From positions 29,339 to 93,338 of the forward strand of contig WRHM01000009.1 of assembly GCA_009783265.1 (NCBI GenBank): a stretch of DNA of 64,000 nt, read 5' to 3'. The position numbers were made by a program, and so were the translations under genes. The notes under the pieces are model-generated. The model had not been told where the DNA came from and made no database searches. It worked only from the letters and a program-made list of their open reading frames with translations. Source of the DNA: Oscillospiraceae bacterium (lineage in GTDB: Bacteria; Bacillota; Clostridia; Oscillospirales; WRJC01). Shown in pieces: positions 4,357-61,552 of the stretch; within the stretch, counting starts at the first letter, position 1; the number at the start of each line of letters is the position of its first letter.

Positions 4357-4382
4357 GCGGGCGATTGGTAATCGCCCCTACA
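4357..4382 (-). repeat. GC-rich palindromic element, copy b (rc: tgtaggggcgattaccaatcgcccgc)
   Basis: Its reverse complement matches copy a at about 21/25 positions. It is also self-palindromic (gggcgatt-gg-taatcgccc). Confidence 0.6.
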
Positions 4383-4411
4383 AAAATACGAAAAGAGGTT
4401 AATTTAATATT

Positions 4412-8331: not shown

Positions 8332-8407
8332 ATTAAGTATATCCCCGATATTAAGGAAATTAATCCCATTCATTTATTAAATATTACATTATTCAAAGAG
8401 TTATAGT

Positions 8408-8422
8408 ATAAGCATTTTCTTC
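8408..8422 (+). repeat. Cassette 3' motif ATAAGCATTTTCTTC (copy 1)
   Basis: Exact 15-mer shared with 11978, 60732 and 29530 (rc). A 20-nt stretch is identical to copy 2 (agtataagcattttcttcag). Confidence 0.85.
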
Positions 8423-8464
8423 AGCTCCTATAAAATCAAATTAACCGTAACAAATATATATTTT

Positions 8465-11136: not shown

Positions 11137-11153
11137 AAGTGATTTCATTAACG

Positions 11154-11167
11154 TAGGAAATTTATAT
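11154..11167 (+). repeat. Cassette 5' motif TAGGAAATTTATAT (copy upstream of GNAT-1)
   Basis: Exact 14-mer also found at 59353-59366 and 30046-30059 (rc). Confidence 0.85.
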
Positions 11168-11190
11168 TATGAACAGGAGAGAAAATTTAA

Positions 11191-11967
11191 ATGGATATTA
11201 ATAAAATACGCAGACAAATTATAAAAGAAGAAATGGAATTTCCTAAATCGTTCACGTTTTATGAGGAACGCGATTACGGTATATTGTATCATAATATTGA
11301 AAATCCAAATTCGGGCGACAGTAACCATTCTGTGATATATCCCGAAAGAATAACGGATTTGCGTTATGTGCTGAATGATATAGCAAATTTTTATGAAAGC
11401 AAAGGTAGCTCTTATTTATGTATTTATCACCCTTTTGTTGCGGATTATTTCATTGACAATGCGAAAATATTGAAGGAGTGCGGTTATGAATTTACTATCA
11501 GTCCCGATACTCCCGTTATGCTATTGACAGAAAAAAATAAAATAGACCTCCCAAAACGTCTTGATATACGTCATATCGCAAATTGGGATGAAAGCATCAA
11601 TAATGACGTATTAACGTGTGTAGCCAATAAAGAACATTTTACAACCGTAATAAAAAACAGCATGGGTGAGAACAACTATTTATTCATTGGTTATATTGAA
11701 AATGAAGCCGCCTCTTTGTTAGCCTTTCATGTATCAAAACATGGCGTTACAAGATTTGATGAAATGGGAACGGCTGAAAAACATAAAAATAAAGGTTATG
11801 CCCGTGAAATGAACAGATATGCGGCGGATTTTGTGCGTAACCATAATTTGCCGATAGCGTATCAATGGCCCGCCCATAAGACGTCCGAACGGATTACTAC
11901 TGAAGCGGGATTCAAGATAGCTTTCACTATACCGTCAGGTTCTGCAACGCTTGCCGAATATAGATAA
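11191..11967 (+). CDS. GNAT-family N-acetyltransferase (cassette gene G1)
   Basis: C-terminal acetyl-CoA motif region (FDEMGTAEKHKNKGYAREMNRYAADF). Own RBS cAGGAGag. Confidence 0.65.
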   Translation: MDINKIRRQIIKEEMEFPKSFTFYEERDYGILYHNIENPNSGDSNHSVIYPERITDLRYVLNDIANFYESKGSSYLCIYHPFVADYFIDNAKILKECGYEFTISPDTPVMLLTEKNKIDLPKRLDIRHIANWDESINNDVLTCVANKEHFTTVIKNSMGENNYLFIGYIENEAASLLAFHVSKHGVTRFDEMGTAEKHKNKGYAREMNRYAADFVRNHNLPIAYQWPAHKTSERITTEAGFKIAFTIPSGSATLAEYR

Positions 11968-11977
11968 ACCACGCAGT

Positions 11978-11992
11978 ATAAGCATTTTCTTC
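11978..11992 (+). repeat. Cassette 3' motif ATAAGCATTTTCTTC (copy 2)
   Basis: Exact 15-mer, 10 nt after the GNAT-1 stop codon. Confidence 0.85.
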
Positions 11993-12042
11993 AGTTCATT
12001 GTATTTTAACGCCACTGGCGCGCCGTGAAAGGAATTAATGGT

Positions 12043-15774: not shown

Positions 15775-15924
15775 TAGTTTTTCCCGAAGAAAATATATTT
15801 TTGCCAAAAATCGCCGAATATTTATAAAGTGCCAAACGCAACAATAAAATATTGGTAAATAAATATATAGATGGGGACTAAATATCAAAAAAGAGGGAGT
15901 TCACCCTCTTTTTGTTTTTATTTT

Positions 15925-19635: not shown

Positions 19636-19677
19636 TTTATTTTTTATTTAAAATTATTCAGGAGTATTTATTAATTT

Positions 19678-19930
19678 ATGAAAAGATTAAAAGATTATCT
19701 ATTGAACATGAATCCAAATTCAACGACTTACGAAGAATTATATGAGGGTAAAATGTTAGTCTGGCCCGTTCCGCTTGATTCTGACCCCGAATATATATAC
19801 GACAGCACATATTGGTATACAGTATCTGAACAGGTTATTTTACACAAGGAGAATTCTATGAAAAGATTAAAAGATTATTTATTGAACATGAATCCAAATT
19901 CAACGACTTATGACGAGATATATGAAGGGC
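19678..19930 (+). repeat. Tandem duplication of the 5' 60-codon module of the ATPase gene (period 180 nt)
   Basis: 19678-19737 and 19858-19917 are about 58/60 identical (both encode MKRLKDYLLNMNPNSTTY). Similarity decays afterwards (DSTYWYTVSEQ vs DSTYLYETLEHEQ). Confidence 0.85.
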
Positions 19931-21777
19931 TGATGGCTATTCCGGGTCAACCCCCGACACCGGTAAACGACAGCACATATCTTTATGAAACATTAGAGCA
20001 TGAACAAATAGCGTTTAAAATTGACAGGACACATAAACTTGCACTCGATAAACCTACTATCACGATAAGCATACCTATAAAAATGTTAGATTTAACTCCG
20101 AAAGATTGCAGTCATGTAGCGGCAAGCGATTATATTTTACGGTCTGCAAAAAAATATTTCGACGAGTTAAACGAAGAAATCATAAACCGAAAACGTCCCG
20201 CGAAAGAAACCGGAAGATATTATATTTATTCGCCCGGCGGCGAAGTTTTAAAACGAAACTGCGTATATTTTCAGGACGTTGAGAGAAAATATTACAGGCT
20301 TCTCGGATATAGAAAAGATAAATCAAAAGTAAACAATCATTATTTAATATCAATCCCGTCGATGTGGGACGACGTTCCTGAACTGCAAAGACTGCCCGAA
20401 TTCTGCGTGAATATTATGATACAGGTGCAATTACCCAATAAGCAGTTCAAAAAAACGATAAAAATGCTCACGCGTGATTTGCCGGACGCTGTTGACAGAT
20501 TTATTTTAGAATTTAACGTACAGAAACTTCGCGCAGCAGTCGCGTTAAACAAAAAACAGGAAGAAATACGCGAATGGCTCAGACAAAGCGATTACTGCGC
20601 GTTTATCGCTAACGGCGCGATATTGCCCAGAAAAGGCAACTCTCCCCTGCCTGCCGAAAACGCAGTCCCGTTTAAGTCTCCCGAATGTGACGAAATTACA
20701 GTCTGCGGACTTTTGGGCATGGGAATAAAAAAAGGCGTGACGGTTGTCACGGGAGGGGGTTATTCCGGCAAAAGCACTTTACTCGACGCAATCTCAGCCG
20801 GAATTTATAATCATATAAAAGGCGATGGCAGGGAATTTGTCATAACTGATGATACCGCGATAAAAATTTCGGCTGAGGACGGTCGGAGCGTAAAAAACAT
20901 AAATCTTTCCCAGTTTATAAAATGGCTGCCAAACAACGGTGACGTTTCACATTTTTATACAGAACACGCGTCGGGTTCAACGTCTCAGGCAGCGAACATA
21001 ATCGAAGCCGTGAATTTCGGTGCGAAACTGTTTCTGATAGACGAAGATAAAAGCGCGACGAATTTTATGATACGCGACGACATGATGAAAGAGTTGATAA
21101 AACGCGAGCCGATTACGCCGTTTACAGACAGGGTCCGGCAGTTATACGGCGAAGCCGGAATATCGACGATACTTGTTGTCGGGGGCAGCGGCGAATATTT
21201 ATCAGTTGCGGACAATGTTATCATGATGGACGAATTTCACGCGTTAAACGCAACGGAGCAGGCGAAAGAAATTTATAAAAACGTGAAAAATATCAACGGT
21301 TCTGTAGGGGCGCGCATTGCGCGACCGCAAAATATTCCGGAAACGGACGACCAATGGTCGCCCCTACAATCAAATAAATGCGAATGGTTCTCTGAGCGCA
21401 GATTAATCACAGAAAAATTTACTTCATATCCCAAAGAGAGCGAAGACGCTTACAGCGGCACGGAACGCCTTGAGATTTCAGACATGGGATTTATAATAAT
21501 CGGCGACGAAAAAATAGACGTAAGAAATCTGCACAATTTTATCTCGTTCGCGCAGATTAACGCCGTCGGATATATGCTGAGATATTTGGAACTGTCGAGT
21601 AGAGAAGCAGTCAGCGACATACAAAAAATCGTCGATGATTTATATGACATAATCGAAAAAAAAGGGGTAGAGTCTATTCATTCGACGTTTTTTAATTGTG
21701 AACGCTGGCTTGATATGCCGCGAAAATGCGAGCTTTACGCCGTAATCAACCGAATGAGGTTTGTTGATTTTATATAA
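19678..21777 (+). CDS. ABC-class ATPase domain protein (COG3044-type 'predicted ATPase of the ABC class')
   Basis: Walker A VTGGGYSGKSTLLDAI, Walker B LFLIDEDKSATNFM, and GDGREFVITDDTAIKISAEDGRSV typical of the family. Alternative start at 19858 has a better RBS (AAGGAG). Confidence 0.75.
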   Translation: MKRLKDYLLNMNPNSTTYEELYEGKMLVWPVPLDSDPEYIYDSTYWYTVSEQVILHKENSMKRLKDYLLNMNPNSTTYDEIYEGLMAIPGQPPTPVNDSTYLYETLEHEQIAFKIDRTHKLALDKPTITISIPIKMLDLTPKDCSHVAASDYILRSAKKYFDELNEEIINRKRPAKETGRYYIYSPGGEVLKRNCVYFQDVERKYYRLLGYRKDKSKVNNHYLISIPSMWDDVPELQRLPEFCVNIMIQVQLPNKQFKKTIKMLTRDLPDAVDRFILEFNVQKLRAAVALNKKQEEIREWLRQSDYCAFIANGAILPRKGNSPLPAENAVPFKSPECDEITVCGLLGMGIKKGVTVVTGGGYSGKSTLLDAISAGIYNHIKGDGREFVITDDTAIKISAEDGRSVKNINLSQFIKWLPNNGDVSHFYTEHASGSTSQAANIIEAVNFGAKLFLIDEDKSATNFMIRDDMMKELIKREPITPFTDRVRQLYGEAGISTILVVGGSGEYLSVADNVIMMDEFHALNATEQAKEIYKNVKNINGSVGARIARPQNIPETDDQWSPLQSNKCEWFSERRLITEKFTSYPKESEDAYSGTERLEISDMGFIIIGDEKIDVRNLHNFISFAQINAVGYMLRYLELSSREAVSDIQKIVDDLYDIIEKKGVESIHSTFFNCERWLDMPRKCELYAVINRMRFVDFI

Positions 21778-26889: not shown

Positions 26890-27681
26890 ATGAAAATGCA
26901 AAATTTAAAAAAGATTCTGGCGGTCGCTTTGCTCTGCGTGATGTTTTTGGCAATTTTGTCGGCCTGCGGTGAGAAAGAAACGCTGATAATCGGCATTACG
27001 GATTATCCTCCGATGAACTATCAGGACGACAACGGCAAATGGATAGGCTTTGAATCGGAATTTGCTGAAGAAGTCGGCAAAATATTGGGCATGAATGTGG
27101 AATTTCAGGTCGTAACAGACTGGGGCAATATTGTAATGGAACTTAATTCGGGCAATGTGGACCTGATTTGGAACGGCATGACGATAAACGCGGAACGTTC
27201 GGAAAACATGGCTATTTCAACGCCGTATATGTACGACGCTCAGGCTATCGTAGTCCGCGCCGCAGACAAGGATAAATATCTTGCGTCAGCCGATTTAACA
27301 GGTGTGGCCCTTGTCGCGGAGACAGGCTCTACTTTAGAAGAGACTATAAAAACAATCGCGCTATTCAATAACGCGGACTACACAGCGGTTGATTCGCAAC
27401 TTAAAGGTATTATGGAAGTTAACGCGGGCAACGCCGATATGACGGTCGTGGATATGATTATGGCGGCGGAACTTATAAATGTCGGAGGGGATTTTTCAGG
27501 TCTTGTTTTCTTCGACAGAGAAGAATTACCCAAAGACGCAAAATACGGTATAGGCGTTAAAAAAGACAGAGACGACGGTTTGCTGAAAGATTTGAACGAC
27601 GCTATCAAAAAATTGCAGGATAACGGCAAGCTTGAAGAAATCGCAAAAAAATACGGACTGGCCGACTGGCTCATCAAATAA
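26890..27681 (+). CDS. Amino-acid ABC transporter substrate-binding lipoprotein
   Basis: Lipobox LSAC. Type-3 SBP pattern (GITDYPPMNY..., DLIWNGMTI). Confidence 0.85.
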   Translation: MKMQNLKKILAVALLCVMFLAILSACGEKETLIIGITDYPPMNYQDDNGKWIGFESEFAEEVGKILGMNVEFQVVTDWGNIVMELNSGNVDLIWNGMTINAERSENMAISTPYMYDAQAIVVRAADKDKYLASADLTGVALVAETGSTLEETIKTIALFNNADYTAVDSQLKGIMEVNAGNADMTVVDMIMAAELINVGGDFSGLVFFDREELPKDAKYGIGVKKDRDDGLLKDLNDAIKKLQDNGKLEEIAKKYGLADWLIK

Positions 27682-27754
27682 AAATTAAGTCGCTATTTAT
27701 TTTAGGGGCGGGGTTTTCCCGCCCTAAGTTTATAATTTACGAGGTATTTTACCA

Positions 27755-28414
27755 ATGTCGTCAAATACAACATTATGGGATGTAACGCTGAATTTACTTG
27801 ACGGGTTTAAACTGAACGCTGTGATATTTTTTGTCACGTTGACTATTTCTCTGCCTCTTGGCATGATTGTCACATTCGGGCTGACGTCAAAAATCTACCC
27901 GGTGAAATGGCTGTGCAAATTTTTAGTATGGATAATACGCGGAACTCCCCTTTTGCTTCAGCTTTATATAGTATTTTATATTCCGGGAATGCTTTTCGGT
28001 ATGCCAATGCGCAACAGAATGCTGGCGACCCTGATTGCGTTCGTTATAAATTATTCAATGTATTTCGCGGAAATCTATCGGGGCGCGCTTGAAAACATCC
28101 CTAAAGGACAGTTTGAAGCCGGAAAAGTTCTCGGATTGTCAAAAACGCAGATTTTTTTTCACGTTATTTTATTTCAGGTGATAAAACGCATAACAGCGCC
28201 TATCGGCAACGAGGTCATAACGCTTGTAAAAGACACGTCTCTGGCAAGGGTCATAGCGGTACAGGAAATACTGATGGTAGCCGGAAGATATATCGGGTAC
28301 GCTCTTATATGGCCTCTGTTTTATACGGGAGTATTTTTTCTGTCGGCGACGGCTGTCGTCACTTTTGTTTTCGGACGCTTGGAAAGGGGGCTGAATCATG
28401 CTACGGGTGAGTAA
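27755..28414 (+). CDS. Amino-acid ABC transporter permease (His/Glu/Gln/Arg/opine family)
   Basis: EAA-loop region (EAGKVLGLSKTQIFFHVILFQVIKR) and RGTPLLLQL. Confidence 0.85.
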   Translation: MSSNTTLWDVTLNLLDGFKLNAVIFFVTLTISLPLGMIVTFGLTSKIYPVKWLCKFLVWIIRGTPLLLQLYIVFYIPGMLFGMPMRNRMLATLIAFVINYSMYFAEIYRGALENIPKGQFEAGKVLGLSKTQIFFHVILFQVIKRITAPIGNEVITLVKDTSLARVIAVQEILMVAGRYIGYALIWPLFYTGVFFLSATAVVTFVFGRLERGLNHATGE

Positions 28415-29015
28415 TTTATGCAAGTCTTACGGGCCGGTCAAAGCTGTTGACAACGTGTGCTTTGAATTGGAAAAAGGCAAAATACTGGCGATAATCGGAC
28501 CGTCCGGCGGCGGTAAATCCACTGTTCTGAGATTGCTTAACGGGCTTGAAACTCCCGACAGCGGCAGTATATATTTTATAAATTCTCAGGGATACATAGA
28601 AAACGGCACGTTCGGTCTTGTGTTTCAGGAATATAATTTATTTCCGCAATATACTGTTCTGGGAAATTTGACTCTTGCGCCAAAACTTCTTAAAAAAAAT
28701 TATTCTCAGGCCATAGAAATACTCGAAAAAGTGGGATTGACTGATAAAAAAAATAATTATCCGTCGCAGTTAAGCGGCGGACAGAAACAGCGCACGGCTA
28801 TAGCCCGCGCGCTTATGCTCAAACCTGATATATTGTGTTTTGACGAGCCGACTTCGGCTTTGGACCCAAAACTGACAGAAGAAATCGTGAATATAATAAA
28901 CCAGTTAAAAGGCGAGCAGACAATTATAATAGTAACCCACGACATGGACGTTATGCGCGGAACTGCGGATATAACCGCAATTATGGACAACGGGAAACTT
29001 AGACTGGATATATAG
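28398..29015 (+). CDS. Amino-acid ABC transporter ATP-binding protein (short form)
   Basis: Walker A GPSGGGKST, signature LSGGQKQR and Walker B ILCFDEPTSALD. Overlaps the permease gene by 17 nt. Confidence 0.85.
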   Translation: MLRVSNLCKSYGPVKAVDNVCFELEKGKILAIIGPSGGGKSTVLRLLNGLETPDSGSIYFINSQGYIENGTFGLVFQEYNLFPQYTVLGNLTLAPKLLKKNYSQAIEILEKVGLTDKKNNYPSQLSGGQKQRTAIARALMLKPDILCFDEPTSALDPKLTEEIVNIINQLKGEQTIIIVTHDMDVMRGTADITAIMDNGKLRLDI

Positions 29016-29032
29016 ATATATAGTAAATCAAA

Positions 29033-29101
29033 AAAACCACCCCGTCAGGCTAAAGCCTGCCACCCCTCCACGGAGGGGTGCCCGAAGGGCGGGGTGGTTT
29101 T
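29033..29101 (+). terminator. GC-rich branched stem structure acting as terminator of the ABC operon
   Basis: Outer stem aaaaccaccccg/cggggtggtttt encloses three hairpins (caggc-taaa-gcctg; cacccctc-cacg-gaggggtg; ccc-gaa-ggg). Confidence 0.6.
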
Positions 29102-29130
29102 CAAGTAGAATTACTATATATAAATTATTT

Positions 29131-29151
29131 GTAGGGGACGCCGTCCCCTAC
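29131..29151. repeat. GC-rich palindrome gtaggggacg/ccgtcccctac (TAGGGG family-like), overlapping the DUF2493 stop codon
   Basis: Near-perfect 10-bp-arm palindrome with no T-run on either side. Confidence 0.6.
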
Positions 29152-29492
29152 AAAAATATTTCCACAGGTTTATTTAACTGATAGCATTTTATAACCGTAT
29201 CGGCCGTCCCCTTTGATTTACCGTCCCAGAAAGCCAGAACCATGTGGGCATACCTGACGATTTCAGAGTTTCTGATAAACGCGGCGGATTTGCCGTATCT
29301 TTTATATTCGGGCAAAAATTCTTTAAATAATAATCCGTGTTCTTTTGCGTAACGGTGCGCGAGAGTATCTATCCCCTCTGCGCCGCCGCTGACTATTTCG
29401 GTGCAGTTTTTGGGGATACTCCCGCATATTTTATCATACCAGTACTCTTCTTTGTTTTGTATATCTCTTGACCCGACTATCGCAACTCTCAT
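29148..29492 (-). CDS. DUF2493/SLOG-family protein
   Basis: MRVAIVGSRD...IVSGGAEGIDTLA...AFWDGKSKGT pattern of the DprA-like SLOG/DUF2493 family. No recognisable SD upstream. Confidence 0.65.
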   Translation of the reverse strand: MRVAIVGSRDIQNKEEYWYDKICGSIPKNCTEIVSGGAEGIDTLAHRYAKEHGLLFKEFLPEYKRYGKSAAFIRNSEIVRYAHMVLAFWDGKSKGTADTVIKCYQLNKPVEIFL

Positions 29493-29529
29493 AATTTTTT
29501 ATTTGTTTTTGTTATTTATTGTATCAAAT

Positions 29530-29544
29530 GAAGAAAATGCTTAT
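29530..29544 (-). repeat. Cassette 3' motif ATAAGCATTTTCTTC (copy 3, minus strand)
   Basis: Exact 15-mer on the minus strand, overlapping the last base of the GNAT-2 stop codon. Confidence 0.85.
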
Positions 29545-30044
29545 TAGTGGGTGTTGTCAAAAATAAAACCAACCCATTCATCATTTTCTGTTCCGCACTC
29601 TTGAAAATCATCTTCTGTATATTCAGAAATTATAGACTTCCAAAATTTTCTGGCAGGAAAATTATTTGGTAATTGACACACTTCCCATTTCCCCCTGAAC
29701 ATATCAAAAGTAGCTTTTGCCGCAAAACTGCCTACTCCTTTTCGACGGTACTTTTTCATAATGAAAAATTCATTGATGGTGTGAGCATTTACATAGTGAC
29801 CGCTATTTTCTTTTACCAATACAAATCCGGCCAATTTTCCATCTACACGGATAAAGAAAGGGTGTCGGTTACTATCAGTCCATAAATAGTCTGTGTATGA
29901 ATAATTGAAATAACCATATTCATTAATATCTTCATTTTCAAATTCTGTAAAGTCATAATTGTATAAATTCATCAACTGAATAAAAACAGATTTTTGTTCA
30001 ATCAAGATAGGTTCAATTTTTATTTCCACATTAATACCTCGCAT
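29544..30044 (-). CDS. GNAT-family acetyltransferase (COG5628-like; cassette gene G2)
   Basis: FFIMKKYRRKGVGSFAAKATF acetyl-CoA motif. Alternative start GTG at 30029 is preceded by GAGGT. Confidence 0.75.
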   Translation of the reverse strand: MRGINVEIKIEPILIEQKSVFIQLMNLYNYDFTEFENEDINEYGYFNYSYTDYLWTDSNRHPFFIRVDGKLAGFVLVKENSGHYVNAHTINEFFIMKKYRRKGVGSFAAKATFDMFRGKWEVCQLPNNFPARKFWKSIISEYTEDDFQECGTENDEWVGFIFDNTH

Positions 30045-30045
30045 T

Positions 30046-30059
30046 ATATAAATTTCCTA
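30046..30059 (-). repeat. Cassette 5' motif TAGGAAATTTATAT (copy upstream of GNAT-2, minus strand)
   Basis: Exact 14-mer on the minus strand, immediately 5' of the ATG at 30044. Confidence 0.85.
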
Positions 30060-30082
30060 CAATATATAAACTATTTGAATCC

Positions 30083-31384
30083 CTACATCACAACAACAGC
30101 GCCGTCATTTCGCACGAACAACTCCAAACACGAATCTTCGCCGAATATCGGCCTGATTTTCTCGAAATATTCCCCGACAAATCTTTTCGGGATAAATGCC
30201 TGTATAGTCCCCGCAAATCCCCCTCCGTGAACTCTTGCAGCCGCCTGTTTATTTACTAAAATTTCTTCGGATAACGCAAGCGCAAGCGGCAATCCCTGAC
30301 TTTGAGGTTCTTTTGGGACATACAAATTTTGCAGATACTTAAACGAAGAATTGCCCGATGAAGTTATTAATTGTAAAAAACCCTCAAAATTGCCGTCTTT
30401 AAGAGCGTCTGCGCCTGCGCGTACTCTTATGTTTTCGGCAAAATAGTGCATCGATCTTAATATCGCCCTGTCGCCGTATAATTGCCTGAGTTTATCTATA
30501 TTATTGTTAAACTCAGCTTTGTCAACGTCTCTCAGAACTTCTTTTCCGAAATAAGCGGCGACCTGTTCCATTTCCTTTCTTATATCGGCATACTCCTGAT
30601 TTAAATTATCATGAGAACCTCCGGGTGATACAATGCATAAACTATATCCTGATTTAGTCAAATCAAAATCGAGTTTTTCGACCGCAGGCTCAGCGGGATT
30701 TTTAAAATCTATCGCGACAAACCCTCCGACCGAACACGCAGTCTGGTCCATAAGACCGCACGGTTTTCCGAAATAATTATTTTCGGCGTACTGCCCGATT
30801 TGCGCGATTTCGAGAGGCGTAATTTTATCTTCGTTATATAAATAATTTAAAATAAACCCGACTAATATTTCAAATGCCGCAGACGAAGAAAGCCCTGAGC
30901 CTTTTAAAACATCAGACACAGTATAAGCGTCAAATCCGCCTATTTCATGCCCAAGTTCCACAAATCTATTACAAGTCCCGCGTATTATAGCAGAAGAAGT
31001 AAATTTTTCTCTCTCGGCAGACGCAAGATTTTCAGTATTGCTTATATCCACGTCGTCGGGGTCAAATCCCTCGCTTTGGATTCTTATATGCGATTTTCTT
31101 CCGCCGGGTATAAGACTTTTTGAGACAACGGCAATAACATCTAAATTTATAGCCGCAGCTAAAACGCAGCCGTGATTGTGATCCGTATGATTTCCTAAAA
31201 TTTCGCTCCTTCCGGGGACAGATATAATTTCTATATCCCTGTTTCCGTAGAGGCTTTCAAAATTTTCAACTGCTTTAAGATAGCGTGCTTTTGCAGATTC
31301 AATTTTATTATCCCCGTATAATTTTCTCAATTTTTCGTTATATACGCCGTTTTTTAAATTCTCGGCCAATATCGCCAATTCCAT
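30083..31384 (-). CDS. galK: Galactokinase (GHMP kinase)
   Basis: Galactokinase signature GRSEILGNHTDHNHG and GHMP ATP motif GSGLSSSAAF. Confidence 0.9.
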   Translation of the reverse strand: MELAILAENLKNGVYNEKLRKLYGDNKIESAKARYLKAVENFESLYGNRDIEIISVPGRSEILGNHTDHNHGCVLAAAINLDVIAVVSKSLIPGGRKSHIRIQSEGFDPDDVDISNTENLASAEREKFTSSAIIRGTCNRFVELGHEIGGFDAYTVSDVLKGSGLSSSAAFEILVGFILNYLYNEDKITPLEIAQIGQYAENNYFGKPCGLMDQTACSVGGFVAIDFKNPAEPAVEKLDFDLTKSGYSLCIVSPGGSHDNLNQEYADIRKEMEQVAAYFGKEVLRDVDKAEFNNNIDKLRQLYGDRAILRSMHYFAENIRVRAGADALKDGNFEGFLQLITSSGNSSFKYLQNLYVPKEPQSQGLPLALALSEEILVNKQAAARVHGGGFAGTIQAFIPKRFVGEYFEKIRPIFGEDSCLELFVRNDGAVVVM

Positions 31385-37874: not shown

Positions 37875-39248
37875 TTATTTACCAAAGGCTTCCGCCCTGT
37901 CAAGCGTTACAAATATCCTGAGCATGTCGTCGCTTAATTGCAGATTGCCGCTTTCGTTGCCTTTTAAATAGCCTTTTTTTGTCATTTTATTTATAGTCGC
38001 TCTCGCCCATTCCGGCATATTGCCGTCGACCCAGCCGTATTTGACTTTTGAGTTATTCGTCCATTTGTCTAAATTTGTCTTTATGCTACTTATTTCTTTT
38101 TTCAGCTCGTCATATTCTTTACTCACCAAATCCACCCCGTTCTGTTCTGAATTTATAATTTTTTTACCCTCTAAATACGGCATAGGGTCAACATAATATC
38201 CGTTATCCCATGCCATGCTGTTTTCTTTCACGGCAAAATGCAGGTGTATGCCGGTGCTGTCACCTGTCGTACCCATTACGCCGAGTATATCGCCTTTTTT
38301 TATTTTTTGCCCTTCTTTGACCCTTACGCTGCCCGCTTTCATGTGAAAATACCGCGTCAGTATTTTATTTGCATGGGATATTGACACGCTATAGCCGATA
38401 AGAGACCCGACTAACGTGCTTGTTACAGTGCCGTCTGCGGCAGCCTTTATATATACATCCTGAGTTTTTTGTTTCCCGTCCCTGTCAATTAAATCAACAC
38501 CGTCGTGCGCCGGACGCTGAGGCGTTCTGAAAGCGTTCCCCGCGCCTGACAGTATTTCGCTATCTGTCGAAATTACATGATTTATTATTTTATTGCCGAT
38601 TATATTCGTTGCAATATTAACAGTATTATTCGCGTTATTATTCACAACAACCGGTTTAGCTAAATCTATATAGCCCCAGTTCATATCGACATTGCCGGAT
38701 ATCCCGTTTATTTTGCCTGTGCACGAATGCTGCCACACGGCGACGCGGCTGTCTATCGCAGAGGGCTTTGCCGAAGTATAATGCGCCTGCCATAATAAAT
38801 ACGGCACCCTTGCCATATCGACATAATTATTTCGCCAGTTGGTGTTTATATATAACATCGGCGTATGCCCTGCTGATTTTATAGCCTCGCAAAAATTTAT
38901 TATCATATCCGTTATGATTTTTTTGCCGAGTGCAGTCTGGCTGTTATCTTCAACGTCAAAAGCCGCCGGATAATCCAATTTTTTGTTTTTTAATAAATTC
39001 AGCATAAAATCGGCTTCCTGTTTTGCCTGCTGGGCGTTTAAAGCATAACTGTAATGATACGCGCCGACTTTTATCCCAGCCGCTTTTGCGTTATTATAAT
39101 TTTTCTCAAAATACGGGTCTGTATAATTCGTCCAGTATCCCGTGCGTATAAAAGCAAATTCAACCCCGTCGGACTTTACTTTTTTCCAGTCGATTTCGCC
39201 CTGCCATTTGCTTACGTCAATCCCTTTTATCTGTGTTATCTGCGCCAT
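37875..39248 (-). CDS. Bifunctional cell-wall hydrolase: GH25 muramidase + M23 peptidase + C-terminal SLH-like motif (endolysin-like)
   Basis: GH25: GIDVSKWQGEIDW...FAFIRTGY. M23: HDGVDL...GDSTGIHLHFAV. Tail: WARATINKMTKKGYLKG. Start MAQITQ has a GGAGG RBS. Confidence 0.8.
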   Translation of the reverse strand: MAQITQIKGIDVSKWQGEIDWKKVKSDGVEFAFIRTGYWTNYTDPYFEKNYNNAKAAGIKVGAYHYSYALNAQQAKQEADFMLNLLKNKKLDYPAAFDVEDNSQTALGKKIITDMIINFCEAIKSAGHTPMLYINTNWRNNYVDMARVPYLLWQAHYTSAKPSAIDSRVAVWQHSCTGKINGISGNVDMNWGYIDLAKPVVVNNNANNTVNIATNIIGNKIINHVISTDSEILSGAGNAFRTPQRPAHDGVDLIDRDGKQKTQDVYIKAAADGTVTSTLVGSLIGYSVSISHANKILTRYFHMKAGSVRVKEGQKIKKGDILGVMGTTGDSTGIHLHFAVKENSMAWDNGYYVDPMPYLEGKKIINSEQNGVDLVSKEYDELKKEISSIKTNLDKWTNNSKVKYGWVDGNMPEWARATINKMTKKGYLKGNESGNLQLSDDMLRIFVTLDRAEAFGK

Positions 39249-39576
39249 TTTGATTATTACCTCCGTTTTTATCAATTTCATTAATATCATTTTTTAATCC
39301 TGTCATTTTCACAAAAATCCTGCTTATTATATCAATTCCTTTCGCCCCGAAATTACCCGCAATCCCGGCAAAACAAAACGCCACGTAAGCATTTAATCCC
39401 TGCCATTCGTAAATGCAAAATATCAACGCTCCCGAAAATGCCGCGCTTACCGCTTCGATAACCAGCGCGGAAAGATTCAGCGATTCGCCTGTTTTCGTAT
39501 TCAGCCATTTGACGCATGAGCCAAACATCGCAAACAAAGCGAGCCCGACCGCTATAAATATATCCTGTTGTTCCAT
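39217..39576 (-). CDS. Holin-like small membrane protein (3 TM, charged C-terminus)
   Basis: Start MEQQDIF is preceded by GGAGGGGAGGG. Has 3 hydrophobic helices and an acidic/basic tail. Its 3' end overlaps the endolysin start by 32 nt. Confidence 0.6.
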   Translation of the reverse strand: MEQQDIFIAVGLALFAMFGSCVKWLNTKTGESLNLSALVIEAVSAAFSGALIFCIYEWQGLNAYVAFCFAGIAGNFGAKGIDIISRIFVKMTGLKNDINEIDKNGGNNQNGADNTDKRD

Positions 39577-39617
39577 TATTCTAAAAACCCTCCCCTCCTT
39601 TTTTACAGGGTCTGTTA

Positions 39618-40256
39618 TTAATATTTTCGTCTGCATAATAACGTCACAGTACTGACAATAAATACCGCGGATATAATTATAAGCGAAACCGCGCCATAAG
39701 TTATCCATGAGCTTATTCCGGTATTTACCGAATATTTTGACACGCCGATTACGGCAAGAAACCTGCCGCTCAGATTTTTATCCGTCGGGACCCACCGGTA
39801 ATATATATAAAAATCATGCGCGTCCGTGCCGTCTTTGTCAAAGCATACCCATATTTCCCCGCTCTCGTTTGTTTTGACTTCACGGATAAATTCCGGGTAG
39901 CTTTCTATATTAAAATTAAACGAATTATCGTCAGATACCGACGTCTGTTGCTCATATTTGGATATACTTTCTAAATTTTCGTCGAACAACTCTGCATAAA
40001 TACCATCTGTCGAATCCATTTGCATTATAACGCCCGACAGAATTTTTCCGTAGTTATGCACTTCCCAGTTATTTTCCAGTTCGACAAACCTGTCGATTTC
40101 ATCGCAGATCAAATCAACGTCGAATCTTTTATCTATAATTTTTTCCTGCATAAGCATATCGTTGACGTGTTCTATCGCAAAATAAAAATAGCCGCAGAAT
40201 GCGGCAAGCACCGCGAGCGCGGCGGCAAATAAATATTTTCTCCAGCCTTTTAACAT
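39618..40256 (-). CDS. Hypothetical bitopic membrane protein (TM - about 150-aa extracytoplasmic domain - TM), sensor-like, no output domain
   Basis: N-terminal TM (LFAAALAVLAAFCGYFYFAI) and C-terminal TM (ITYGAVSLIIISAVFIVSTVTLL). AGGAGGGG RBS. Lies directly upstream of the holin. Confidence 0.55.
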   Translation of the reverse strand: MLKGWRKYLFAAALAVLAAFCGYFYFAIEHVNDMLMQEKIIDKRFDVDLICDEIDRFVELENNWEVHNYGKILSGVIMQMDSTDGIYAELFDENLESISKYEQQTSVSDDNSFNFNIESYPEFIREVKTNESGEIWVCFDKDGTDAHDFYIYYRWVPTDKNLSGRFLAVIGVSKYSVNTGISSWITYGAVSLIIISAVFIVSTVTLLCRRKY

Positions 40257-49636: not shown

Positions 49637-50563
49637 TTAATGCTCCTGTGGGTTCACATGAACCATGCAGTGCTTTACTCTGGGATTTACTTTTTCCACT
49701 GCGTCATGAATATTTTCGGCTATATCATGAGTTTGATTTAAACTCAGATTACCGTCTGCGCTGATTTCTATGTCAACGTATATTTTATCGCCAAAAAGCC
49801 TCGTCTTTAACTGGTCGATCTTAAAATCTCCCTGATTTTGTATTGCCTCGCGTATTTCTTCGATTGTTTCGTCGCTTGCAGTTCTATCAGTCATTTTGCC
49901 TATAGCGTCCATAAAAATATTATACGCCGCTTTTACTATAAATACACAGATAATAATACATGCCGCCGAATCCAGTATAGGAAACCCCAATCGCGCGCCG
50001 AGTATCCCCACAAAGCTGCCCACTGATGATAAAGCGTCGGAACGGTGGTGCCATGCCCCAGCCATCAACGCAGTCGAATTTATTTTTTTCGCGAAAATTT
50101 TCGTATACCAGAACAAGCCTTCTTTGACCGCAATCGAAACCACAGCCGCAATCAGTGCAAGCAGACCGGGTATAGCCAAACTTTGATAATCGCCTGAAAA
50201 AATATTTTTTGCTCCGCCGTATCCGATAACAAATCCGGTAGCGGCAAGAATTGCCGCGAGAATAATCGCCACAACGCATTCAAACCGTTCATGACCATAA
50301 GGATGCTCTTTGTCTGATTTTTTATTTGACAGTTTTATGCCGACCAAGACAATCGCCCCGCCTAAAATATCTGACATAGAATGGACCGCGTCTGATACCA
50401 TCGCCATCGAGCCGGCAATAATTCCGGCTGATAATTTAAAAGCTGTTAAAATTATATTGAACAAAATGCCGACAAAACTCACCTGTACGGCAATTTGTTC
50501 ATTGCTTTTACTGCTTTTATTTTTTTCGTTTGTATTTTTTGTATCGTTTATATCGTTTGTCAT
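49637..50563 (-). CDS. Cation diffusion facilitator (CDF) family metal efflux transporter (CzcD/FieF-like)
   Basis: Six TM with HSMSD and HHRSD metal-site motifs and a C-terminal cytoplasmic domain. GGAGGT RBS. Confidence 0.85.
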   Translation of the reverse strand: MTNDINDTKNTNEKNKSSKSNEQIAVQVSFVGILFNIILTAFKLSAGIIAGSMAMVSDAVHSMSDILGGAIVLVGIKLSNKKSDKEHPYGHERFECVVAIILAAILAATGFVIGYGGAKNIFSGDYQSLAIPGLLALIAAVVSIAVKEGLFWYTKIFAKKINSTALMAGAWHHRSDALSSVGSFVGILGARLGFPILDSAACIIICVFIVKAAYNIFMDAIGKMTDRTASDETIEEIREAIQNQGDFKIDQLKTRLFGDKIYVDIEISADGNLSLNQTHDIAENIHDAVEKVNPRVKHCMVHVNPQEH

Positions 50564-50671: not shown

Positions 50672-50735
50672 AAAAATAAAAAAAGCACACCAATAATGGA
50701 ACAATATTACTGTCCCACAGATGTGCGTGTAAATC
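50672..50735 (-). terminator. Intrinsic terminator forming the expression platform of the riboswitch-like leader
   Basis: GCACAUC...GGUGUGC stem followed by U7AU5. Its 5' arm overlaps the 3' strand of leader helix P4. Confidence 0.55.
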
Positions 50736-50805
50736 ACCTGCTGCCGCATTATCGCGACCCAGCCCCATAAACATTAAAATTAAAAGTTTATCGCCTGATC
50801 AGTTT
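50709..50805 (-). promoter_or_regulatory. Candidate NiCo (czcD-motif) riboswitch aptamer
   Basis: Four helices can be drawn: P1 ACUG/CAGU; P2 AUAAAC/GUUUAU; P3 GUCGC/GCGGC; P4 CAGGUG/CAUCUG. Junction strings are CUGGG, GCAGCAGG and CUGUGGGACAG. It sits between a consensus promoter and a CDF gene. Confidence 0.55.
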
Positions 50806-50855
50806 ATTTTGTACTGTAATTTATATGCAGTGCAAATAGTAGCCCTATATTTATT

Positions 50856-56131: not shown

Positions 56132-57934
56132 TTGAACAATGAAAGTGAAAGCAACGGCGGGCGGCCGCAAGGGTCTCCCCTGCGAATATATGGGATAAAC
56201 GGCCCTGTCGTGACTATATCCGGGCATACGGATCTGAGTATGCAGGAAATGGTGTTTGTCGGGGGGAAAAAACTGATAGGGGAAGTTATAAATATATCAG
56301 ACGATAAAACTACTATACAGGTTTACGAAAATACGACGGGGCTTTATTCGGGCGAGCCTGTGGAATCGACAGGTTATCCGATACGCGCTACTCTGGGCCC
56401 CGGTATGCTGTCGAATATTTATGACGGAATCCAAAGGCCTTTAAAAGCTATAGAAAATATATCGGGATATTATATTAAAACAGGGATAGATGTCTCCAGC
56501 ATAGATTATGAAAAAAAATGGGATATAAAAATTTTAGCAAACGAGGGGCAAAAAGTAAATCCCGGAGATATATACGCCGAATGCGACGAAACGTCTGTGA
56601 TAAAACATAAATTTATGATACCCGGCAATATTTCCGGTATTATAGAATCGGTTGTTTTAAACGGCAAATATTGCGTAAACGACGAGATTTTAAAAATAAA
56701 AACAGAATCCGGCGAAATTGCGAGTATTAATTTAACCGAAAAATGGGCGATAAGAAAGCCCCGGCCGGTTAAAGAACGTCTGGAGCCTAAAACTCCGTTG
56801 ATTACCGGGCAAAGGGTAATAGATACTCTTTTCCCGATAGCTAAAGGCGGAGCCGCCGCAATCCCCGGCGGATTCGGCACGGGCAAAACTATGCTCCAGC
56901 ATCAACTGGCGAAATGGAGCGACGCGGATATAATAGTATATGTCGGCTGCGGTGAGCGGGGCAACGAGATGACGCAGGTATTAGAAGAATTTTCTGAGCT
57001 TGTTGACCCGAAAACCGGCAAAAGTATGCTTGAGCGGACTGTTTTGATTGCAAACACTTCAAATATGCCTGTCGCGGCACGCGAGGCATCGATTTATACG
57101 GGGATAACGATAGCCGAATATTACAGGGATATGGGTTATCATGTTGCGATAATGGCGGATTCTACGTCAAGATGGGCTGAGGCGTTGAGGGAAATATCGG
57201 GACGGCTTGAAGAAATGCCCGCCGAAGAAGGATTCCCGGCTTATCTGCCGTCGAGATTATCGGCGTTTTATGAGAGAAGCGGGATAGTCGAAAATCTGAA
57301 CGGCAGTATCGGTTCTCTGACAATAATCGGGGCTGTGTCCCCTCAGGGCAACGATTTTTCGGAGCCTGTCACCCAGAATACAAAAAGATTTATCAGATGT
57401 TTTTGGGCATTAGAAAAATCTTTGGCTTATTCGCGGCATTACCCCGCGATAAACTGGACTACAAGTTACAGCGAATATCTTGTTGAATTAGACGGCTGGT
57501 TCACTGAAAACGTAAATCCTGAGTTTAACAAATGCCGCGCGATAATAAAAAATATACTGAACGATGAAAATCAATTAATGGAAATCGTAAAATTAATCGG
57601 CAGCGATTTGCTTGCCGACGACCAGAAATTGATTTTGGAGACTGCGCGGGTTATAAGATCGGGATTTTTACAGCAGAACGCCACGCATCAGAACGATTCA
57701 TATTCACCTATCGAAAAACAGTATCTCATACTTGAAGTTATAATAAAATTATACGACAGGGCAAAAGAATTAATATCGCGCTCAGTTCCTGTTTCGCAAT
57801 TAAAAGAGAGCGGTGTGTTTGACATGATAATACGCGCGAAGTACGAGATACCCAACGATAAATTGGAGATGTTCGGCGAATTGTTGGATAGTATAGAGAA
57901 GAAGATAAAAGAAATCGAGGATAGATATAATTGA
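56132..57934 (+). CDS. ntpA: V-type ATPase catalytic subunit A
   Basis: Walker [16 protein letters not shown] and [16 protein letters not shown] start with an AGAGGTG RBS. Codons 9-17 are encoded by a palindromic repeat copy. Confidence 0.9.
56156..56182 (-). repeat. TAGGGGCG-family palindromic element inside the 5' end of ntpA (21/23 identical to 1908-1930)
   Basis: gggcggccgcaagggtctcccct vs gggcggccgcaaaggtcgcccct. Its reverse complement is 19/21 complementary-compatible with 56082-56102. Confidence 0.7.
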
Positions 57935-59337
57935 TTATGAACAACATAGAATATATAGGATTATCACAGATAAACGGGCCGCTGATTGTTATCGACGGGA
58001 TAGAAAACGACTGTTATGAAGAACTCGTGGAAATCATAAGCAAAGACGAAAAACGTCTGGGAAGAATAATACAAATAGAGGGAAACAGAGCCGTTATTCA
58101 GGTTTTTGAAGGGACGAACGGCCTCTCCCTCAACAATACAAGAACGAGATTGCTCGGCGAGCCTATGAAATTTGCGGTAAGCAGGGATATATTGGGCAGG
58201 ATTTTCGACGGGGTCGGGCGGCCTATCGACGGCTACGGGGAAATATTCGCCGAAGCTAAGCTCGATATAAACGGCAGCTCGATAAATCCTGTGTCAAGAG
58301 ATTACCCGAGAGATTATATAAGAACGGGAATATCTTCGATTGACGGCTTGGCGACATTGATAAAAGGGCAGAAACTGCCGATATTTTCAGGGTCGGGCAT
58401 GAGCCATAACGAGCTTGCGGCTCAGATAGTAAGCCAAGCTAATGTCGAAGGCTCGGACTACGCGATAATTTTCGCCGCTATGGGCGTAAAAAACGACGTG
58501 GCGCAGTATTTCAGGCGTTCTTTTGAAGAAACGGGGGTTTTATCAAGAGTCGTGATGTTTATGAATCTTGCCAACGACCCTATAATCGAGAGAATCACAG
58601 CCCCCCGCTGCGCGCTGACTGCCGCTGAATTTCTCGCCGCGCAATACGGCATGGACGTTCTTGTGATTATGACCGACATGACTTCTTACGCCGAGGCACT
58701 GCGCGAATTTTCATCGGCGAAAGGCGAAATCCCGGGAAGAAAAGGCTATCCGGGATATTTGTATTCGGATCTGGCTTCGCTTTATGAAAGAGCGGGGAAA
58801 ATAAAAAATATAAATGGCTCTGTCACGCAAATCCCAATTTTAACTATGCCAAACGACGATATTACGCACCCTGTACCGGACTTGACGGGATATATAACCG
58901 AGGGTCAGATAGTTTTGTCGCGTTCGCTTGAACAAAAAGGGATTTATCCGTCGGTTTCGGTATTATTATCTTTGTCAAGGCTGATGAAAGACGGCATAGG
59001 GACAAAATATACGCGGGAGGACCATTCGGCAGTCTCAAACCAGCTATATTCTTCTTATGCCAAAGTCGAGGACGCGCGCTCTTTAGCATCAGTTATCGGC
59101 GAAGAAGATTTGTCCCCGATTGATAAATTATATATAGAATTCGGGCGCAAATTCGACAGTATATTTTTAAACCAGTCCAAATCCGACAACAGGACGATTG
59201 ATACTACGCTTGATTTAGGCTGGCAGCTTTTATCGCTTTTGCCAAAAGAAGAATTAGACAGGTTAGACCCGAAGCTTTTGGAGCAAAAATACGGCAAAGT
59301 CAATGTTATCGAGGATAATACGGATAGTATGAATTGA
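57931..59337 (+). CDS. ntpB: V-type ATPase subunit B
   Basis: [19 protein letters not shown] and the degenerate P-loop typical of B subunits. Confidence 0.9.
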
Positions 59338-59352
59338 TGTAAAGATTAAACT

Positions 59353-59375
59353 TAGGAAATTTATATTTTCTTCGT
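59353..59375 (+). repeat. Cassette 5' motif TAGGAAATTTATAT fused to left copy of 11-bp direct repeat ATTTTCTTCGT
   Basis: 14-mer identical to 11154 and 30046 (rc). ATTTTCTTCGT (59365-59375) recurs at 60738-60748. Confidence 0.85.
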
Positions 59376-60731: not shown

Positions 60732-60748
60732 ATAAGCATTTTCTTCGT
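60732..60748 (+). repeat. Cassette 3' motif ATAAGCATTTTCTTC (copy 4) + right copy of direct repeat
   Basis: Exact 15-mer, 17 nt after the peptidase stop codon, flanked by GTTCAA on both sides. Confidence 0.85.
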
Positions 60749-60781
60749 TCAACCAAAATTTATTACAGGTATTATAAATTT

Positions 60782-61393
60782 ATGGAAACAAATATATTCC
60801 CGACAAAAAGCAATTTATTGCAAACCAAACGCTCACTTGATCTTGCGAGAGTGGGCTTTGAACTTCTGGATAAAAAAAGAGTTATCATGCTGCGCGAAAT
60901 GATGTCGCTCATGCACGATATAGAAGGCGTTCAGGAACAAATCGATATAACTTTTGCCGATGCTTACGCGTCTTTGCAGAAAGCGAATTTTACTGTCGGG
61001 CAGAGCGAAATTTTGAATATCACTAATTATAATATTTTCCCCGACGATATAAATATCCAGTTTAAGTCAGTTATGGGAGTTGAGATACCTGTTGTATATT
61101 ATGACGAGAAGCCCCCAAAATTAAATTACGGGTTCGCGTTCACTAATTCTGATCTTGACGACGCGTATATAAAATTTCTTAAAGTAAAACATCTGACAGC
61201 AATGCTCGCCGCAATCGAAAACAGCGTTTACAGGCTTGCGTTCGCGATAAAACAGGCGCAGAAAAGGGCGAACGCTTTAAGAAATATAGTTATCCCAAGA
61301 CTTGAGCAGACAGTATATTTTATTACCGGCTATCTGGAAGAAAAAGAGCGTGAATCGTTTACGGTGCTTAAAGTTATAAAACATAAAAAATAA
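60782..61393 (+). CDS. ntpD: V-type ATPase subunit D (central stalk)
   Basis: N-terminal PTKSNLLQTKRSLDLARVGFELLDKKR and C-terminal coiled coil typical of subunit D. Confidence 0.85.
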   Translation: METNIFPTKSNLLQTKRSLDLARVGFELLDKKRVIMLREMMSLMHDIEGVQEQIDITFADAYASLQKANFTVGQSEILNITNYNIFPDDINIQFKSVMGVEIPVVYYDEKPPKLNYGFAFTNSDLDDAYIKFLKVKHLTAMLAAIENSVYRLAFAIKQAQKRANALRNIVIPRLEQTVYFITGYLEEKERESFTVLKVIKHKK

Positions 61394-61423
61394 AAATTTA
61401 ATATTAAATGTAAAATTATATAC

Positions 61424-61452
61424 TACAGGGGCGATTAATAATCGCCCCTACG
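61424..61452. repeat. TAGGGGCG-family palindrome (ctacaggggcgattaataatcgcccctacg); probable terminator of the ntp operon
   Basis: aggggcgatta-a-taatcgcccct perfect arms. Same arm sequence as 4272-4382. Confidence 0.7.
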
Positions 61453-61485
61453 TAATTAAATTTTTTATATTATGCGAAAAAATTG

Positions 61486-61514
61486 TTGAAATTTTCATAA
61501 ATTAAGGGTATAAT
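61486..61514 (+). promoter_or_regulatory. Sigma-A promoter (TTGAAA-17-TATAAT) for glyA
   Basis: Near-consensus hexamers with a 17-nt spacer. Confidence 0.6.
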
Positions 61515-61552
61515 ATTTTATATTATTTGTTTAATTAAAGGAGAATATAACT

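Follow-up and report, generated by a model that had tools for sequence, protein, structure and literature searches.

Shared end motifs around single acquired genes in a termite-gut Oscillospiraceae genome, and their possible relation to mobile insertion cassettes

This study concerns the interval between galK and a DUF2493/SLOG gene in a stretch of 64,000 nucleotides from an uncultured termite-gut Oscillospiraceae bacterium (contig WRHM01000009.1, hereafter the window). In this interval a single gene encoding an acetyltransferase of the GNAT family, GNAT-2, stands between two short motifs that recur around unrelated genes elsewhere in the window. An earlier note on this DNA had proposed that on the minus strand galK, a 5' motif TAGGAAATTTATAT, GNAT-2, a 3' motif (A)TAAGCATTTTCTTCA and a DUF2493 gene lacking a Shine-Dalgarno (SD) sequence follow one another, and this is indeed the order found. 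Its spacers must each be corrected by one nucleotide, that between galK and the 5' motif being 23 nt (not 22) and that between the 15-mer and the ATG of the DUF2493 gene 36 nt (not 37). The note also had the stop codon of GNAT-2 overlapping the 3' 15-mer; in fact the TAA (29546..29544) abuts the 15-mer, and it is only the 16-mer ATAAGCATTTTCTTCA that shares its last A. Both junctions of GNAT-2 are identical in an independent assembly (Logan SRR6220664, locus L002), so the arrangement is not an assembly artefact.

The gene between galK and the DUF2493 gene

The features of the locus are as follows; G2 is the name given to the putative cassette that contains GNAT-2, and handles beginning with L designate loci of other genomes.

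31384..30083, minus: galK (galactokinase), the upstream core gene (PF10509, 2e-18; PF00288, 1e-15)
30063..30046, minus: 5' end motif of G2, ATTG-TAGGAAATTTATAT, the left inverted repeat
30059..30046, minus: the exact 14-mer TAGGAAATTTATAT, followed by A and then by ATG 30044
30044..30027, minus: start region, with ATG 30044, the SD sequence GAGGT (30040..30036) and GTG 30029
30044..29544, minus: GNAT-2 open reading frame (ORF) from ATG, 166 aa (PF00583, 1.7e-10)
30029..29544, minus: GNAT-2 cargo from GTG, 161 aa, acetyl-CoA N-acetyltransferase by PF00583
29544..29529, minus: 3' end motif of G2, the 16-mer ATAAGCATTTTCTTCA, the right inverted repeat
29543..29529, minus: the 15-mer TAAGCATTTTCTTCA, directly after the GNAT-2 stop
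29528..29493, minus: A-rich leader of the DUF2493 gene, without SD sequence, kept in L003, L339 and L340
29492..29148, minus: DUF2493/YAcAr-SLOG gene, 114 aa, the downstream core gene (PF10686, PF02481)
29154..29128, minus: terminator-like hairpin TTTGTAGGGGACGGCGTCCCCTACAAA containing the DUF2493 stop codon, of the GTAGGGG...CCCCTAC palindrome family

The GNAT-2 protein scores 41.6 bits against PF00583, for which the gathering cut-off is 20.7, and its AlphaFold model (pLDDT 88) has the alpha/beta fold of the GNATs, with a Foldseek probability of 1.00 to many GNAT structures. The nearest of these are uncharacterised GNATs together with the polyamine acetyltransferases SpeG and PaiA, at a TM score of ~0.65 and 13-20% identity; the model shows a generic GNAT fold, and the cargo is taken to be a generic GNAT acetyltransferase. 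The scan of metagenomes with GNAT-2 yielded 9 loci only. Searches by tblastn gave no match in the phage collection and none above 44% identity among plasmids, and PADLOC returned no defence-system match for any of the cargo genes.

The preference already expressed for GTG 30029 over ATG 30044 as the start of GNAT-2 holds up well. Nearly all of the 30 nearest homologues listed start at this point with MxIxIEP, the NCBI call of a 161-aa product agrees with it, GAGGT sits 6 nt upstream of it, and pairing with the anti-SD sequence is stronger than at the ATG (-7.3 versus -4.2 kcal/mol), all of which makes the GTG the likely translation start. The arrangement ATG-(5 codons)-GTG is kept, with its GAGGT, in the homologue of L337. 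Were the TATAAT of the 5' motif to act as a -10 box, transcripts from that promoter would not include the upstream ATG.

The same ends at four places in the window

Beyond G2, the end motifs occur at three further places, all on the plus strand:

8352..8424, plus: ORF-less copy C0, after an SBP_bac_1 gene
11150..11996, plus: cassette G1, with AACG-TAGGAAATTTATAT, a gene for a 258-aa probable GNAT, and ATAAGCATTTTCTTCAGTT
59351..59374, plus: intact 24-nt imperfect palindrome CTTAGGAAAT-TTAT-ATTTTCTTCG, in the leader of C3
59392..60749, plus: cargo of cassette C3 (440 aa, weakly M1-peptidase-like) and its 3' motif ATAAGCATTTTCTTCGTT (60732-60749)

G1 lies between an MR_MLE gene of the enolase superfamily and an SDR gene; its exact 5' motif is at 11154, its gene (11191-11967) encodes a product whose GNAT matches are sub-threshold, and its 3' motif is at 11979. 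C3, with an exact 5' motif at 59353 and a 3' motif at 60733 that ends in G, sits between the genes for V-ATPase subunits B (57931-59337) and D (60782-61393), and C0 consists of a degenerate 5' motif TAAGGAAATTAAT, 43 nt, and an exact 3' motif TATAAGCATTTTCTTCAG. Two other signals were set aside: what may be a duplicated piece of the SDR 5' end, lying downstream of G1 and too weak to interpret, and AAATATATTTTCTTCG at 15786-15800, a similar sequence in an ordinary promoter region that we attribute to chance.

Chance would hardly produce the copies retained. The exact 14-mer TAGGAAATTTATAT is present three times in the window (0.005 expected) and ATAAGCATTTTCTTC four times (0.0007 expected), and the same 14-mer and 15/16-mer flank three unrelated genes within 64 kb. 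The left end, with its flanks, has the consensus A[A/T][C/T]G-[T/G]TAGGAAATTTATAT and the right end ATAAGCATTTTCTTC[A/G](G)TT, for which AACGWAGRAAATTTATAT and ATAAGCATTTYCTWCRGTT are proposed as search strings. Each cassette holds one ORF, none of them related to transposases. The cargo is also foreign in composition: among the 54 window genes scored for G+C at third codon positions (GC3; mean 0.428, sd 0.054), the three lowest values are those of C3 (0.263, the lowest), GNAT-2 (0.281, z -2.7) and G1 (0.324).

The two ends are related to each other as inverted repeats, with 14-17 matches in 25 (15/25 in G2) against 9.65 +/- 1.54 for 5000 random pairs, of which the best reached 16. In the palindrome at 59351-59374 the 5' motif runs directly into the outer half of the 3' motif, the two ends being its two halves; in L323, a GNAT-2 homologue has a leader built in the same way, CGAACAAAAT-TTAT-ATTTTATACG. 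Such halves of a 24-bp palindrome look like double-stranded sites for one dimeric enzyme. Folding points the same way, as neither the cassette ends nor the palindrome form a stable hairpin (-1 to 0 kcal/mol, z >= 0), which argues against sites of the attC or IS200/605 type and for double-stranded protein-binding sites. For want of stable subterminal hairpins at the cassette ends, an element of the IS200/IS605 or REP/RAYT type was likewise rejected.

Related GNAT cassettes exist in other genomes. Homologues of GNAT-2 with 66-77% amino-acid identity occur in other contexts with homologous 5' (AACG.A..AAA.TTTATAT) and 3' (ATAAGCA...) ends. That of L326 (66%, after pyrG) has AACGCAGAAAACTTTATATT at its 5' end and ATAAGCATTTCCTACAG at its 3' end, the reverse complement of which contains GTAGGAAAT; ATAAGCATTTCCTAC, at this 3' end of L326, is a perfect inverted copy of GTAGGAAAT. 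Those of L323/L324 (77%, after murB) and L337 (68%) keep AAATTTATAT and ATAAGCA, the latter accompanying GNAT-2 homologues directly after the stop in four contexts, and blocks homologous to the 5' motif precede other cassettes in L326, L323, L337 and L338. The motifs are not present in the homologues of L325, L327, L328, L334 and L487. In every host examined, which adds eight other contexts, the GNAT-2 homologue is AT-richer than its flanks. The homologue of L334 (68%) belongs to a long co-directional run of small accessory genes (L334:300-14000) that includes several GNATs, UPF0175/DUF3368 toxin-antitoxin pairs, a NUDIX gene, AAA_33 kinases and a HAD hydrolase; the run looks much like an integron cassette array, but repeated attC-like sites were not detectable in it, and the likeness was set aside.

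We consider it probable that the paired motifs are the termini of one family of insertion cassettes. G2 would then extend from ~30063 to 29529 on the minus strand, and a typical member would have a left end, then a short leader private to it and provided with an SD sequence, then a single gene with a weak promoter or none, and lastly a right end. The occurrence of the same ends around three foreign genes suggests a mobile single-gene cassette of a kind that may be undescribed.

Variable junctions and resident neighbours

The junction between galK and the DUF2493 gene is found in five states across related lineages. In the nearest genome, the sister termite-gut Oscillospiraceae metagenome-assembled genome Th196P3bin6 (L003; galK 76% identical at the amino-acid level), 19 nt (gtcagaaacaaaaaaattt) separate the galK stop from the DUF2493 ATG, and in L340/L341 the spacer is of 12 nt; neither GNAT nor motif is present in these cases. 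L338 has at the same place a vapB (DUF2281)-vapC (PIN) pair and a gene for a 170-aa membrane protein, and L339 has DUF2127, DUF433 and a GTAGGGCG...CGCCCTAC palindrome. Among the lineages compared, GNAT-2 stands between galK and DUF2493 in that of the window only, and the galK loci of 79 other species contain neither DUF2493 nor GNAT-2 within 4 kb. The earlier note had described GNAT-2 as a discrete cassette sharing its motifs with G1, a view that conservation of the galK-GNAT-DUF2493 order across the family would have contradicted; the order proves to be private to one lineage, and the relatives either lack GNAT-2 or carry other inserts. GNAT-2 is almost certainly a horizontally acquired insertion.

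The V-ATPase junction behaves in the same way. Between ntpB and ntpD (subunits B and D) four states are seen; L343 has an ECF sigma factor and DUF4097 there, L344/L345 have a methyltransferase and a 148-aa GNAT, and L346 has a further ORF. Each of the two junctions is an insertion hotspot in several lineages, in the sense used for horizontal-transfer hotspots. Transferred genes are reported to cluster at hotspots flanked by core genes (Oliveira et al. 2017, PMC5635113). Our two intervals resemble these in that the same core-gene interval holds different accessory genes in each lineage and mobility genes are absent; they differ in lying inside tight operons (V-ATPase B|D; spacers of 12-19 nt when empty) and in the sequence-specific ends common to the inserts of one genome.

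This raises the question of whether any dedicated mobility is needed. The two junctions could be ordinary hotspots whose content changes through homologous recombination within the core genes on either side, in which case the motifs would be portable expression modules, the 5' one a weak promoter or AU-rich leader before the SD sequence and the 3' one an untranslated region. Both junctions vary by lineage and most inserts do not have the motif pair, as this explanation would have it, and the concentration of transferred genes in core-gene hotspots (PMC5635113) fits it as well. It would also account for AAATTTATAT[T/A] being the sole invariant block across genomes, 14-25 nt upstream of every cargo start and followed by a variable SD sequence, for the promoter-like sequence at 30070-30043 (TTTATA-16-TATAAT, 10/12, with a TATAAT-like hexamer in the inner 5' motif), and for L338, where two consecutive leaders have the AAATTTATAT block and the 3' motif is absent. 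We nevertheless consider it somewhat unlikely. It does not explain why three unrelated genes with different SD regions have 14-16 identical nucleotides at each end, nor the inverted-repeat relation of the two ends, nor the ORF-less copy at 8352-8424 and the copy with abutted ends at 59351-59374, and the 3' motif has neither a hairpin nor any other recognisable role in expression. Two other promoter candidates, judged by inspection against consensus sequences, were rejected: a sigma-70 promoter of TTAACG and TATATT has a spacing of 9 nt, and a sigma-H-like -35 (RNAGGAWWW, which GTAGGAAAT matches) has no conserved -10 at 11-12 nt. Should the motifs be portable expression signals and nothing else, the locus would still be a clean, but ordinary, example of an operon-internal transfer hotspot.

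The DUF2493 gene itself had been presented as belonging to a family usual on phages, plasmids and conflict islands. The family assignment is sound, a profile search of the 114-aa protein giving PF10686 (DUF2493/YAcAr SLOG) above its gathering score (37.5 bits against 28.2), together with PF02481 (DprA) at 45.6 bits against 29.6 (6e-12). So are two further observations of the note: the start without SD sequence, where anti-SD pairing (+1.6 kcal/mol) is weaker than at any other of the 42 starts scored, and the TAG stop inside a palindrome, which forms a stable hairpin (29128-29154, -11.5 kcal/mol, z -5.9). The SD-less, A-rich leader is itself conserved in relatives. It is the association with a mobile or conflict island that is not supported. 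Homologues with 81-89% amino-acid identity adjoin galK in L003 and L338-L341, whatever is inserted between them, which makes the gene a conserved galK neighbour, with a conserved leader and host-like GC (GC3 0.478), in at least five related lineages. On these comparisons the DUF2493 gene is a resident chromosomal neighbour downstream of galK, outside the cassette and not part of its cargo.

A broader reading would make both GNAT-2 and DUF2493 components of one mobile or conflict island beside galK. DUF2493/SLOG and DprA-like domains do occur in conflict systems, and PADLOC gives partial matches to the DprA-like parts of ShosA and PsyrA; these span ~50 residues only, and no Shosta or PsyrTA partner gene was found at the locus. 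Both sides of the gene are variable. On its 3' side, between DUF2493 and a PocR/AraC regulator, the window has a three-gene amino-acid ABC transporter operon in the opposite orientation (26890-29015, plus; SBP_bac_3, permease, ATPase), which is also present in L338 and missing from L003 and L339, where DUF2493 is followed directly by the regulator, and L341 has an integrase fragment on that side; the 3' side is therefore a second variable region. Set against the retention of DUF2493 next to galK in every related lineage examined and its host-like GC and GC3, however, such an island is very improbable, and the conservation data already largely rule it out.

How the cassettes may move

The reading that we favour, tentatively and short of an even chance, is that the cassettes are non-autonomous, bounded by inverted repeats, and mobilised in trans in the manner of mobile insertion cassettes (MICs). 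MICs (MIC231 of Bacillus cereus, the qnrD and qnrS2 MICs) and miniature inverted-repeat transposable elements (MITEs) have short inverted repeats and passengers, contain no transposase, and are presumed to be mobilised in trans. The ends would be bound by a single dimeric enzyme acting on DNA, be it a transposase or a recombinase, whose gene lies elsewhere in the genome. G1, G2 and C3, with their unrelated cargo, and C0 would have inserted, in the orientation of the host genes, into short spacers between co-directional core genes, where read-through transcription would express the cargo and leave the operon unbroken. From the anatomy of C3 (left repeat, right repeat, gene, right repeat) we infer that new cargo might be captured through an alternative right end.

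The resemblance to MICs and MITEs lies in the short terminal inverted repeats at both ends of one or few passenger genes, the lack of a transposase inside, and the coexistence in one genome of copies with different cargo and ORF-less miniatures. The size series, from the abutted-ends copy (59351-59374) through the ~73-nt ORF-less copy (8352-8424) to the gene-bearing copies, counts in favour of this reading, and the absence of any recombinase or transposase gene, tyrosine recombinases included, from the 64-kb window counts for its non-autonomous part. Unlike MICs and MITEs, the present cassettes have no cognate insertion sequence identified in the window and no clear target-site duplication, their repeats (~12-18 nt) are imperfect, all copies are co-oriented and lie inside or at the end of operons, and C3 consists of abutted left and right ends, then the gene, then a second right end.

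Several points weigh against a dedicated mobile element of this kind. The copies available number just 3-4 and come from a single genome. Their inverted repeats are short and match imperfectly (~13/18). By inspection, a short direct repeat that might be a target-site duplication is seen in G1 only (CATT/TTCATT, perhaps by chance), and none is consistent in G2, C3, C0 or L326. The best-conserved block across genomes is the inner AAATTTATAT, which is -10-like and 14-25 nt upstream of starts, and which would also fit an expression signal. Finally, L338, L343, L344 and L487 have inserts at the same hotspots, or of the same gene family, without the 3' motif, which means that the hotspots also turn over without the mechanism proposed here.

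The palindrome invites a different, integron-like explanation, in which site-specific recombination would act on double-stranded sites of a simple kind. The intact palindrome (..GGAAATTTAT|AT|TTTCTTCR..) would be the docking site and ATAAGC|AT|TTTCTTCR the site borne by the cassette; a recombinase encoded elsewhere would exchange strands in the central AT, G1 and G2 would lie in a split docking site, and C3 would carry TTTCTTCG at its own 5' end because it had earlier been excised between two 3' sites. One conserved crossover point indeed fits every junction: on their 5' side G1 and G2 have TTTATAT|WATG and C3 has TTTATAT|TTTCTTCG, and every 3' end reads ATAAGCAT|TTTCTTCR. The intact palindrome in the L323 leader and the ATAAGCA that travels after the stop with GNAT-2 homologues in four contexts agree with this, and GNATs, vapBC, DUF433 and methyltransferases, all of them found at the hotspots, are typical cargo of integron cassettes. 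The likeness extends to single, mostly promoterless and co-oriented ORFs, with GNAT and toxin-antitoxin cargo, and to a hybrid site at the first position. Yet the empty sites of relatives (L003, L340/L341) do not have the palindrome, three dispersed docking sites take the place of a single attI, and a crossover in a palindromic AT would leave the orientation unfixed, whereas all copies are co-oriented.

The comparison with classical integrons fails for both site and platform. As attC sites the motifs were rejected, being unfolded (-1 kcal/mol, z +1) and having no RYYYAAC/GTTRRRY cores in their flanks. As a platform of intI, attI, Pc and array the locus was rejected too, with no tyrosine recombinase in the 64 kb and with single cassettes dispersed over several loci. 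On balance we regard the integron-like explanation as quite unlikely. Phage morons offer a looser parallel, in that they also are single AT-richer accessory genes between conserved co-directional genes, possibly with their own promoter; the cassettes described here, however, are outside any prophage, have no flanking terminator, possess conserved inverted-repeat ends and have no relatives in the phage collection. Viral contigs scanned for the 15-mers, and for degenerate motifs of greater length, yielded only single matches at chance level and no locus with both motifs exact. Xer/dif modules have 28-bp dif-like sites (11-6-11) on either side in inverted orientation; in a comparison made by eye only with the Firmicutes dif consensus, only the non-conserved upstream context of G2 resembles a XerC arm and spacer, no XerD arm is seen, and G1 and C3 show no resemblance.

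A more ambitious proposal, which we think unlikely as it stands, is that of an undescribed cassette system of uncultured termite-gut Oscillospiraceae. Promoterless single-gene cassettes would be docked in, or bounded by, the halves of a 24-bp double-stranded palindrome CGTAGGAAAT-TTAT-ATTTTCTTCG, without attC hairpin or linked integrase, and would colonise many intra-operonic spacers, that of V-ATPase B|D included, so that conserved operons would become distributed platforms for cassettes. More generally, if the ends define a mobile unit, single accessory genes could be slotted compactly into essential, packed operons without polar damage, and this without the folded attC sites of integrons and without an on-board transposase. 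Such a unit would add a mechanism to the known gene-cassette systems, and would help to explain how transfer hotspots are filled without mobile-element genes in uncultured gut Firmicutes. The short, defined ends would moreover provide a handle for finding the enzyme, since motif and enzyme should co-occur across genomes.

Palindromes, RNA elements and other features of the window

A family of REP-like palindromes, GTAGGGG(C)G...C(G)CCCCTAC, is present across the clade in two sizes, a short one of 21-29 nt and a long one of 64-100 nt. The window has copies at 21304-21367, 29131-29151, 4359-4388 and 61429-61458, and relatives have them at L339:4833, L344:5424 and 18853, and L487:2378 and 2499. 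The GTAGG...CCTAC bracket is common to this family and to the cassette ends, and might link the cassettes to a palindrome family abundant in the clade. The copy at 21304-21367 lies inside the ORF of a 699-aa ABC_ATPase, between two Pfam domains, and recalls in-frame insertions of palindromic elements. The start of the same ORF (19678..21777) contains a 72-nt direct repeat, 92% identical, at 19677-19748 and 19857-19928, 180 nt apart.

Between the terminator hairpin of the DUF2493 gene and the convergent ABC ATPase gene lies an element of 115 nt (29016-29130), flanked by inverted TATATAGTAA/TTACTATATA. It is predicted to fold into a three-hairpin multiloop with a 13-bp closing stem (RNA minimum free energy -58.1 kcal/mol, z -8.35) and has no Rfam match; its core CCCCGCCCT[T/G]CGGGCACCCC recurs at L344:16081, in a similar long palindromic element.

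Downstream of the V-ATPase junction, relatives have a structured-looking leader with ...CCGACCGTCTGGGCA before the SHMT gene (L343:10613-10847, L344:10613-10874), which seems to resemble the ZTP/pfl riboswitch and is regarded as a candidate only. The window has a GGGGCGATTAATAATCGCCCCTAC hairpin in its place (61394-61552). The only match in an Rfam search of the whole window was a NiCo riboswitch (50708-50812, minus; 71 bits, E 1.7e-14), upstream of a cation-efflux (CDF) gene (49637..50563). Lastly, a GH25-M23 lysin, a LydA-type holin and a 212-aa gene stand together at 37875-40256 (minus) and look like the remnant of a phage lysis module.

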